From IMG/VR virus record IMGVR_UViG_2877251553_000005: a stretch of 52,483 nucleotides of DNA; one strand, 5' to 3'. This document shows, piece after piece, positions 42,001 through 45,000 of this stretch. Every line of letters begins with the position of its first letter. Positions within the stretch are counted from its first letter, which is position 1. This stretch comes from a virus (Duplodnaviria > Heunggongvirae > Uroviricota > Caudoviricetes). A program made the position numbers.

Positions 42001-45000
42001 GGATGCTTATCATCTGGCGGGGATTGAGATGCCGGATTTTCATCGCGGGGATGACTGGTGGCGTCACGGTCAGAATCTCTATCTGGATAATCTGGAGGCC
42101 ACAGGGCTGTATCAGGTGCCGTTGTCAGCGGCGCAGCCGGGCGATGTGCTGCTGTGCTGTTTTGGTTCATCGGTGCCGAATCATGCCGCCATTTACTGTG
42201 GTGACGGCGAGCTGCTGCACCATATTCCTGAACAACTGAGCAAACGAGAGAGGTACACCGACAAATGGCAGCGACGCACACACTCCCTCTGGCGTCACCA
42301 GGCATGGCACGCATCTGCCTTTACGGGGATTTACAACGATTTGGTCGCCGCATCGACCTTCGTGTGAAAACGGGGGCCGAAGCCATCCGGGCGCTGGCCA
42401 CACAGCTCCCGGCGTTTCGCCAGAAACTGAATGAGGGCTGGTATCAGGTGCGCATTGCCGGGCGTGATGCAGGCGAAAACGAATTATCTGCCCGTCTTAA
42501 TGAGCCGCTGGCAAATGGTGCCGTGATCCACATCGTACCGCGTCTGGTGGGAGCTAAAAGTGGCGGTGTGTTTCAGGCGGTGCTGGGGCAGCTGTTATGG
42601 CGGTTGCTATATGGATGCCGGGGGTAGGAATTATGGCGAGTAATCTGCTGTTTTCTCTCGGTGCCAGTATGACGCTTGGCGGTGTTGCACAGATGCTGGC
42701 ACCGAAAGCCAGAACTCCCCGTACACAGACAACGGATAACGGCAAACAGAACACCTGTTTCTCCTCACTGGATAACATGGTTGCCCAGGGCAATGTCCTG
42801 CCTGTTCTGTACGGTGAAATGCGCGTGGGGTCACGTGTGGCATCTCAGGAGATCAGCACGGCAGATGAAGGGGATGGTGGTCAGGTTGTGGTAATTGGGC
42901 GGTAATATTATTTACTCATGTTCTAACTGATTTAATATTTATATCGAACACTGATAATTATTCTATTGGTTAGCTATATGAACAAAACGATTTTATTCTG
43001 CACGATTATTGCCTTAACAGGATGTAAATCTTTGGATTACGTAAAATCCGGAAAACCTGTAATGGAAGGTAATTCATTAAAAAATATTGATGAATTGTCA
43101 GGCTGCATATCCAGACAATGGGCTGGTAATGGAACACCTATAACATCCCTTCCTATTGAGAATGGGGTAAGCCTTTTAGTTCCACAGGCTATGGGGGGAT
43201 ATGATATTGTGCTTGATATCAAAAAAGCAGGAAATGGCAGTAGTTTTACTCTTTATGAACGTGTACCAGCATTAACGCCAAAAATTTTTGCTGATAGTGT
43301 TAATGCATGTAAATAATAGTTAATCCTGCCGTAACTCATGAGCCGCCTTTTGGGCGGCTTTGTTGTTTATGGAGTGTGAGGAATGGGTAAAGGAAGCAGT
43401 AAGGGGCATACCCCGCGCGAAGCGAAGGACAACCTGAAATCCACGCAATTACTGAGTGTGATCGATGCCATCAGCGAAGGGCCGATTGAAGGTCCGGTGG
43501 ATGGATTAAAAAGCGTGCTGCTGAACAGTACACCGGTGCTGGACAGTGAGGGGAATACCAACATCTCCGGTGTTACGGTGGTGTTCCGGGCAGGTGAGCA
43601 GGAGCAGACACCGCCGGAGGGATTTGAATCCTCCGGTTCCGAGACGGTGCTGGGTACGGAAGTGAAATACGACACGCCGATCACCCGGACCATCACGTCT
43701 GCAAACATCGACCGTCTGCGCTTTACCTTCGGTGTGCAGGCACTGGTGGAAACCACCTCAAAGGGTGACAGGAATCCGTCGGAAGTCCGCCTGCTGGTTC
43801 AGATACAACGTAACGGTGGCTGGGTGACGGAAAAAGACATCACCATTAAGGGCAAAACCACCTCGCAGTATCTGGCCTCGGTGGTGGTGGGTAACCTGCC
43901 GCCGCGCCCGTTTAATATCCGGATGCGCAGGATGACGCCGGACAGCACCACAGACCAGCTGCAGAACAAAACGCTCTGGTCGTCATACACTGAAATCATC
44001 GATGTGAAACAGTGCTACCCGAACACGGCACTGGTCGGCGTGCAGGTGGACTCGGAACAGTTCGGCAGCCAGCAGGTGAGCCGTAATTATCATCTTCGCG
44101 GGCGCATTCTGCAGGTGCCATCGAACTATAACCCGCAGACGCGGCAATACAGCGGTATCTGGGACGGGACGTTTAAACCGGCATACAGCAACAACATGGC
44201 ATGGTGTCTGTGGGATATGCTGACCCACCCGCGCTACGGCATGGGGAAACGTCTTGGTGCGGCGGATGTGGACAAATGGGCGCTGTATGTCATCGGCCAG
44301 TATTGCGATCAGTCAGTGCCGGATGGCTTTGGTGGCACGGAGCCGCGCATCACCTGTAACGCTTACCTGACCACACAGCGTAAGGCGTGGGATGTGCTCA
44401 GTGATTTCTGTTCGGCGATGCGCTATATGCCGGTATGGAACGGGCAGACGCTGACGTTCGTGCAGGACCGACCGTCGGATAAGGTGTGGACCTATAACCG
44501 CAGTAATGTGGTGATGCCGGATGATGGCGCGCCGTTCCGCTACAGCTTCAGCGCCCTGAAGGACCGCCATAATGCCGTTGAGGTGAACTGGATTGACCCG
44601 GATAACGGCTGGGAGACGGCGACAGAGCTTGTTGAAGATACGCAGGCCATTGCCCGTTACGGTCGTAACGTCACGAAGATGGATGCCTTTGGCTGTACCA
44701 GCCGGGGGCAGGCACACCGCGCCGGGCTGTGGCTGATTAAAACGGAGCTGCTGGAAACGCAGACCGTGGACTTCAGCGTGGGTGCAGAAGGGCTTCGCCA
44801 TGTACCGGGCGATGTCATTGAAATCTGTGATGATGACTATGCGGGTATCAGCATCGGCGGGCGCGTGCTGGCGGTGAACAGCCAGACGCGGACACTGACG
44901 CTCGACCGTGAAATCACGCTGCCATCCTCCGGCACCACGCTGATAAGCCTGGTTGACGGACAGGGGAATCCGGTCAGCGTGGAGGTCCAGTCCGTCACCG

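Follow-up and report, generated by a model that had tools for sequence, protein, structure and literature searches.

The window analysed here, a stretch of 52,483 nucleotides (nt) from a virus of the class Caudoviricetes (IMG/VR record IMGVR_UViG_2877251553_000005), carries between its lambda-like tail genes I and J a small gene, termed X in the following (42978–43316, + strand), which encodes a predicted lipoprotein of 112 amino acids (aa; 113 codons with the stop) and belongs to the protein family PHROG 914. We consider it a tentative but reasonable reading, at a probability of roughly 40%, that X is an outer-membrane-anchored periplasmic lysogenic-conversion factor that probably acts in phage exclusion at the level of the cell envelope and is not tied to the receptor type of the adjacent J protein. 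Exclusion is favoured because of the analogy with the lipoproteins Llp, Rtp45, Cor and the Lpp proteins that mEpimmI phages encode, and because one of the slots used by the X family is that of HK97 gp15, a gene whose product is a demonstrated superinfection-exclusion protein. The element as such is of a known kind: lambdoid late operons are known to carry lipoprotein morons, and its slot has been annotated as a site of morons in HK97 and HK022. New is the cargo family, which is uncharacterised, absent from Pfam and set apart from all exclusion lipoproteins studied by its size, its fold and its lack of receptor matching. Such accessory genes of prophages determine by which phages a strain can be infected and, in some cases, the degree of its virulence. 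If X represents a new exclusion mechanism, it is relevant to host-range prediction in phage therapy; otherwise, it may be a host factor of the Bor kind.

X is the only open reading frame (ORF) noted between the stop codon of I (42903–42905) and the ribosome-binding site of J, a stretch on the + strand that spans 42906–43370 and precedes the J start at 43383. Alignment of this junction with phage lambda and with a sister prophage lacking X (L038) reveals that I and J are separated by only ~60 bp in both of them, while in the window 432 extra bases (about 42906–43337) replace ~20 bp of the I-J spacer. The GC content amounts to 0.36 in X and drops to 0.22 in the 72-nt spacer upstream of it (42906–42977, + strand), as opposed to ~0.57 in the neighbouring tail genes. 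Extra DNA between otherwise adjacent genes and a deviant base composition are features of morons in the sense annotated for HK97 and HK022, and X shows both. The comparison with lambda, the base composition and the lipobox described below support the view that the segment is a moron, an AT-rich insert of 432 bp placed between I and J in a tail operon of the lambda type. A first-pass annotation of this DNA had stated that J directly follows I in lambda, that the additional gene here spans 113 codons with a classic lipoprotein signal, LTGC, and that it lies in a segment of lower GC content; each of these statements agrees with our data.

The N-terminus of X, MNKTILFCTIIALTGC, starts with a lysine-containing n-region followed by a hydrophobic core and the lipobox L13-T14-G15-C16, so that the arrangement MNK-TILFCTIIA-LTGC conforms to the lipobox pattern [LVI][ASTVI][GAS]C behind a charged n-region and a hydrophobic h-region. 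The signal peptide (residues 1–15) together with the lipobox cysteine occupies 42978–43025 on the + strand, with the lipobox at 43014–43025 and the codon of Cys16 at 43023–43025. Judged from the sequence, Cys16 is predicted to be the lipidated first residue of the mature protein, at which the precursor would be cleaved and acylated. Residue +2 is a lysine, i.e. not the aspartate that serves as the inner-membrane retention signal in Escherichia coli.

The first-pass annotation had regarded X as unassignable to a family, which holds for Pfam, where a scan at E ≤ 1 returned no family, Lambda_Bor and Ail_Lom included, but not for PHROG 914, of which X is a full-length member by hidden Markov model (HMM) search. 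X matches the profile phrog_914 (function unknown) with an E-value of 2.5e-32, residues 1–112 aligning to profile positions 1–118, and eight distant relatives of X likewise match PHROG 914. An NCBIfam scan of X yielded nothing beyond a VirB7 match that covers the signal peptide alone (E-value 0.08), the PADLOC models gave no match for X or three of its relatives at E ≤ 1, and a literature search on the protein accession of X and on prophage lipoproteins found no study of the PHROG 914 lipoprotein family. An exhaustive HMM search of 1.8 billion cluster representatives retrieved 112 relatives, nearly all of them 105–125 aa long. A further match, P0039 (1047 aa, five matching stretches), proved spurious and corresponds to an Ig_7 repeat protein. 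All counts of conservation given here rest on an alignment of 107 sequences (alignment A3). A Pfam scan of 107 relatives (E ≤ 0.01) gave stray single matches only, none of them to DUF3568 (PF12092) or Lambda_Bor.

Within this alignment, Cys16 and Cys43 are invariant (107/107), and Cys111 (106/107), Gly63 (103/107) and Trp48 (93/107) are nearly so or highly conserved. The codon of Cys43 (43104–43106, + strand) falls in the first helix of the predicted structure and that of Cys111 (43308–43310, + strand) in the C-terminal helix. Exactly two cysteines are present in the mature part of 101 of the 107 members, and the conservation of the cysteines persists down to about 20% overall identity. The lipobox pattern is matched by 103 of the 107 relatives, and in none of these 103 is the +2 residue an aspartate. 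The cysteine pattern and the missing +2 aspartate would fit an outer-membrane lipoprotein sorted by the Lol pathway and carrying a periplasmic domain with one disulfide, which in X would connect Cys43 and Cys111.

AlphaFold, supplied with alignment A3, returned a confident model of X (predicted local distance difference test, pLDDT, 90.6; predicted template modelling score, pTM, 0.80), which replaced an earlier poor model built from four sequences (pLDDT 63). The chain runs through a strand, a helix containing Cys43, four antiparallel strands and a C-terminal helix containing Cys111. The mature 97-aa protein is thereby modelled as a small helix-grip-like domain, a fold that by itself gives no functional transfer. 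X would probably be located at the inner leaflet of the outer membrane. Between the lipid-bearing cysteine and the first strand, the tether comprises only about 10 residues; hence, the domain would sit against the membrane.

The structure nearest to the model is Francisella Flpp3/DUF3568; further neighbours are Brucella Bab1_1389, DUF302 and KA1 domains (scores of about 8), the N-domain of BamC (7.4) and START/Bet v 1 proteins (6–7), the sequence identity to all these neighbours being only 6–12%. A PDB profile search with the X family gave matches confined to signal peptides. These structural neighbours bear on a doubtful but serious alternative to exclusion, according to which X is a host-fitness or virulence factor unrelated to phages and comparable to Bor/Iss or Lom of lambda: as a periplasmic or outer-membrane lipoprotein, it would change serum resistance or envelope homeostasis, or use its helix-grip fold to bind a hydrophobic ligand. 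The presence of Flpp3, a virulence determinant according to its PDB entry, of Bab1_1389, of the BamC N-domain and of the lipid-binding START/Bet v 1 folds among the nearest structures speaks for such a role, as do the position of Lom two genes downstream of X and the fact that X has been kept intact in a dead prophage of a pathogen. However, 0/107 members match DUF3568 or Lambda_Bor in Pfam, and the spread of the family over phages of diverse hosts and environments fits a phage-centred role better than a role in a particular host niche.

Of 5426 complete E. coli genomes, 337 contain the segment with X and its flanks (477 bp, 42906–43382) at ≥95% identity; it is almost always chromosomal there, and the gene is always annotated as a hypothetical protein. 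In E. coli the arrangement is always I-X-J, as seen in strain 214-4 and in the E. coli-type IMG/VR loci (L002–L060), and the exact allele of the window is recorded in Shigella dysenteriae and other Shigella. In the INPHARED phage collection, X itself found neither a megablast match nor a tblastn match at 1e-5; distant relatives in this collection were reached only via queries with other family members. A scan of genome contigs that used a shallow alignment recovered no more than a Kluyvera prophage plus one weak, partial hit to a metagenome-assembled genome. Altogether, the family is found in 6% of complete E. coli genomes as well as in Shigella, Salmonella, Enterobacter, Kluyvera and Pseudomonas phages, and PHROG 914 has members in phages of enterobacteria, of Pseudomonas and of high-GC hosts found in varied environments.

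Among 36 ungapped copies of X and the window, 11 synonymous variants face 6 non-synonymous ones, corresponding to a ratio of non-synonymous to synonymous substitution rates (dN/dS) of roughly 0.2. Together with the distribution, the relatives and the fold, these counts show that X is under purifying selection and is a real gene rather than a chance ORF. They also bear on the view that X is a functionless hitch-hiker, a remnant ORF kept by its linkage to the conserved 5′ region of J. Frameshifted copies (P0002, P0006, P0009; L058–L060), the poor ribosome-binding site of X and an N-terminally truncated copy in Pseudomonas phage phiAH14a would be in line with such a remnant. We nevertheless regard this as very improbable in view of the excess of synonymous variants, the retention of Cys16, Cys43 and Cys111 in highly diverged members, the confidently predicted fold and the independent capture of the gene at many phage positions.

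These positions were compared for relatives that are PHROG 914 members or match the family profile (for HK140_019, hhalign 98.4%). Besides the I-J slot, which is used in the window and in E. coli and Shigella prophages, the gene lies in the K-I slot of phages HK140 and Fraca, of the Kluyvera prophage (L078) and of three viral contigs (L069, L070, L082). A match in mEpX2 falls at the genome position corresponding to the K-I slot, an assignment by position only. In a further locus (L062, with near-identical copies in L064–L067), the gene occupies the T-H slot between a Phage_tail_T gene and an HK97-type tape measure gene, which is the position of HK97 gp15, an annotated moron. In the GenBank records of HK97 and HK022, moron sites are annotated at the T-H, K-I and I-J junctions, where they hold other cargo; hence, the slot is a known hotspot and its cargo mobile. 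Other members are oriented antisense to their surroundings, namely between tail chaperone and tape measure genes (L076), within a Hendrixvirinae-like head module (L080) or in an early replication region (L073). Finally, in one locus (L083, 3443–3447) the PHROG 914 gene begins with an ATG that shares its first base positions with the TAA that ends an S24 CI/LexA-like repressor gene (TAATG), and the motif GGGAGG precedes this overlap by a few bases. The overlap implies co-expression with the prophage repressor and suggests translational coupling to it. With one member coupled to a repressor and others placed antisense in structural modules, the arrangement of the family favours expression in lysogens.

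The transcription signals of the window copy itself are faint. A consensus scan upstream of X on the + strand returned no sigma-70 promoter, and the AT-rich spacer (42906–42977) holds weak sigma-70-like hexamers, the best manual matches being TTTACT-17-AATATT (8/12) and TTAATA-15-GATAAT (9/12), together with a poor Shine-Dalgarno sequence. An Rfam search of 42600–43600 gave no match to an RNA family. From its sequence, the spacer could plausibly support independent transcription of X. Downstream of the gene, a hairpin with a 9-bp stem (6 GC pairs; 43340–43360) and a T-rich tail reaching to 43370 lie on the + strand just 5′ of the ribosome-binding site of J, and the 66 nt around it (43310–43375) have a predicted folding energy of −22 kcal/mol (z = −3.15). 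This structure had initially been taken for a Rho-independent terminator belonging to X. The hairpin and the T-run are real, but in the alignment they match column for column the hairpin upstream of J in lambda and in L038. As it is already present in the I-J spacer of lambda and of this sister prophage, the hairpin is ancestral to the junction and was not brought in by the insert. A hairpin with a T-run directly 5′ of J is common to lambda (15445–15504; L077 2446–2505), to prophages lacking X and to the window, and given its conservation in the late operon upstream of J it must be read through by late transcription; it may serve as an attenuator, in RNA stability or in the translational control of J.

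This read-through is among the observations in favour of X being an accessory of the lytic cycle that is expressed from the late operon only, either as a lytic-conversion factor protecting progeny or as a helper in lysis or tail function: X is co-oriented inside the late tail operon, its promoter is weak or absent, some K-I copies start ~40 nt after K behind a strong Shine-Dalgarno sequence, and the downstream hairpin, being part of the lambda I-J spacer, is already passed by late transcription in lambda. Yet lambda and many sister prophages make tails without X, other members of the family are antisense to structural genes or coupled to a repressor, and X lies outside the lysis cassette, so that we judge a purely lytic role unlikely.

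The enterobacterial copies in slots other than I-J possess good Shine-Dalgarno sequences, and behind each of them lie a hairpin and a T-run of its own. In the T-H-slot copies (L062, 7960–8000), the Shine-Dalgarno motif GGAGG lies within a possible hairpin (CCTCC ttacttc TGGAGG) ahead of the start codon, which may represent a translational control. HK140 carries two lipoprotein morons in one tail region, namely the PHROG 914 gene between K and I (L086, 5001–5342) and Cor downstream of J (L093, 1366–1599). Pseudomonas phage phiAH14a encodes two gpI paralogues that are 79% identical (L088, 5028–5948; L095, 16239–17310). One of them, p84, belongs to the tail operon, where the K-I slot in front of it holds an unrelated lipoprotein of 140 aa, p83; homology of the X family to p83 was tested and rejected. 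The other, p32, is located in the early-left region behind the N-terminally truncated PHROG 914 copy p33, and the pair p33-p32 looks like a transplanted X-I fragment, a relic of recombination. X and gpI are adjacent in several phages, but we did not build on a functional link between them, the early copy in phiAH14a being devoid of a signal peptide.

X directly adjoins J, the gene for the tail tip and host specificity (43383–46862, + strand; 1159 aa), and its distribution was compared with the receptor-binding types of J. About the first 820 aa of the J protein of the window are near-identical to lambda J, and its C-terminal, receptor-binding part is of the VT1-Sakai/PPompW type. The comparison covered the 40 viral loci in which X and the J C-terminus both lie inside the fetched DNA, with X protein identities of ≥91.6% (≥97% for intact copies). 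The J C-terminus was identical to that of the window at ≥94% in 25 of these loci, at 80–93% in 5, at 70–79% in 1, at 60–69% in 3 and at <60% in 6, so that X pairs with at least four receptor-binding types. Conversely, there are phages that have the VT1-Sakai/PPompW J C-terminus and lack X.

These data speak to the proposal that X is a cognate receptor mask of the Cor/Llp/Rtp45/Lpp010 kind, which would attach to the outer-membrane protein that its own J recognises, on the periplasmic side, prevent further adsorption or DNA ejection and keep progeny from being wasted on debris. The adjacency of X and J would suit such a mask, and the known cases are outer-membrane lipoproteins encoded beside the receptor-binding gene (PMC11893012, PMC12685063). 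Against it stand the varied J C-termini linked to X (15/40 loci not of the window type), the phages that share the J type of the window without X, the relatives that lie far from J in the T-H slot, the head module or the immunity region, the presence of both an X homologue and Cor in HK140, and the lack of sequence or fold similarity between X and the known masks. Hence, with the varied J types and the co-occurrence with Cor, a mask of the phage's own receptor is unlikely.

Under the reading that we prefer, exclusion at the envelope irrespective of the J type, X would be made in lysogens and would convert their cell envelope. Its precursor would be exported and processed to the mature 97-aa helix-grip-like domain, probably stapled by the Cys43–Cys111 disulfide. 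Its target would be an outer-membrane component, contacted on the periplasmic face, or else a component of the incoming tail tip, and X would exclude incoming phages at the outer membrane or in the periplasm. X is accessory cargo of the mobile PHROG 914 family rather than a part of the virion, and under this reading its action would not be matched, as that of a mask is, to the receptor recognised by its own J. There is precedent for such an activity, as lipoproteins encoded within the structural clusters of temperate coliphages exclude phages when produced on their own (PMC11893012).

A bolder form of this proposal, which we hold to be rather improbable, is that PHROG 914 constitutes a new class of outer-membrane lipoproteins whose disulfide-stapled 97-aa domain blocks siphophages from the periplasmic face independently of the receptor, via the formation of the tail-tip/tape-measure channel or via a shared envelope factor. 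If true, a receptor-independent block would explain the shuffling of the family among the T-H, K-I and I-J slots, its coexistence with Cor and its indifference to the J type.

Several observations weigh against a role of X in exclusion from the lysogenic state. There is no convincing promoter or ribosome-binding site ahead of the window copy, and the spacer of some K-I copies is too short to hold a promoter, making late-operon-only expression possible there. The known exclusion lipoproteins have mature parts of ~60 aa and lie beside the receptor-binding gene, while X forms a 97-aa globular domain that does not track the receptor-binding end of J, and an X homologue coexists with Cor in HK140. 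The mature part of X has no similarity to Cor, Lpp010, HK97 gp15 or HK97 gp22. Moreover, no homology ties the PHROG 914 family to phage exclusion, and PADLOC gave no match.

The surrounding prophage looks defective, yet X is intact: the window has the appearance of a decaying lambda-like prophage of Shigella type. Tail gene I is split into two ORFs (42265–42627 and 42597–42905, + strand) by the loss of one G from a G-run near 42589–42596; the two halves are in frame in the near-identical locus L002, where they are offset by 333 nt, compared with 332 nt in the window. The split may reflect a genuine pseudogene or else an error in sequencing the homopolymer. The tape measure gene H is likewise split (38023–39225 and 39036–40595), and the terminase/portal region for packaging (28113–31860) is broken into several ORFs. 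Two copies of an insertion sequence of the IS3 family lie in direct orientation (13202–14512 and 23569–24879), 10,367 bp apart; each contains an HTH_Tnp_1 ORF of 136 aa and an rve ORF of 301 aa, and they are 100% identical over the 300 nt compared. The region 18847–23504 resembles the late region of Shiga toxin (Stx) phages without stx and contains an N6/N4 DNA methylase gene (18847–19905), tRNA-Met and tRNA-Arg genes (19946–20105) and a NanS-like sialate O-acetylesterase gene with DUF6645 (22161–23504). At the prophage end, the opposite strand carries, amid truncated tail-fibre and assembly genes, a gene for a class I S-adenosylmethionine-dependent methyltransferase (51205–51873, − strand), probably a further accessory gene; E. 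coli 214-4 shows the same arrangement.

When compared to characterized proteins, X resembles several systems in part. Flpp3 (DUF3568) of Francisella tularensis is its nearest structural neighbour, but X differs from it in sequence (6–12% identity), no family member matches the DUF3568 model, and the function of Flpp3 itself is unknown. Bor/Iss and Lom of lambda are lysogenic-conversion envelope proteins that likewise stem from morons in the late region, in a slot different from that of X; X has no Pfam match to Lambda_Bor or Ail_Lom, and Lom lies two genes downstream of X in the window.

Cor of phi80, HK022 and N15, Llp of T5, Rtp45 of Rtp and Lpp010/Lpp021 of the mEpimmI phages are, like X, phage lipoproteins that have a lipobox and a signal for outer-membrane sorting, encoded within or beside the tail and host-recognition genes, and expression of each of them alone excludes phages (PMC11893012, PMC9586334, PMC12685063). 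They differ from X in their mature part, which is a peptide of ~60 aa (PMC12685063, PMC11893012) as opposed to the 97-aa alpha/beta domain of X, the likeness being confined to the signal peptide. Thus, in an hhalign comparison of the family profile with HK022 Cor, the aligned part is limited to the signal peptide and the first residues, 16 signal-peptide columns and no more align with mEp010 Lpp010 (a type C mEpimmI Lpp), and T5 Llp and Rtp45 show no sequence or fold similarity. These proteins furthermore adjoin the receptor-binding module and match its receptor, whereas X does not.

The tail morons of HK97 and HK022 (gp15 at T-H, gp20 at K-I and gp22/gp23 at I-J) are the counterparts of X with respect to position. 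Their cargo is unrelated, as hhalign gave a probability of <1% for homology of X to HK97 gp15 or gp22, and HK022 gp20 resembles a membrane peptide whereas X is a lipoprotein. The slots, by contrast, are the same, and the X family is seen in all three of them.

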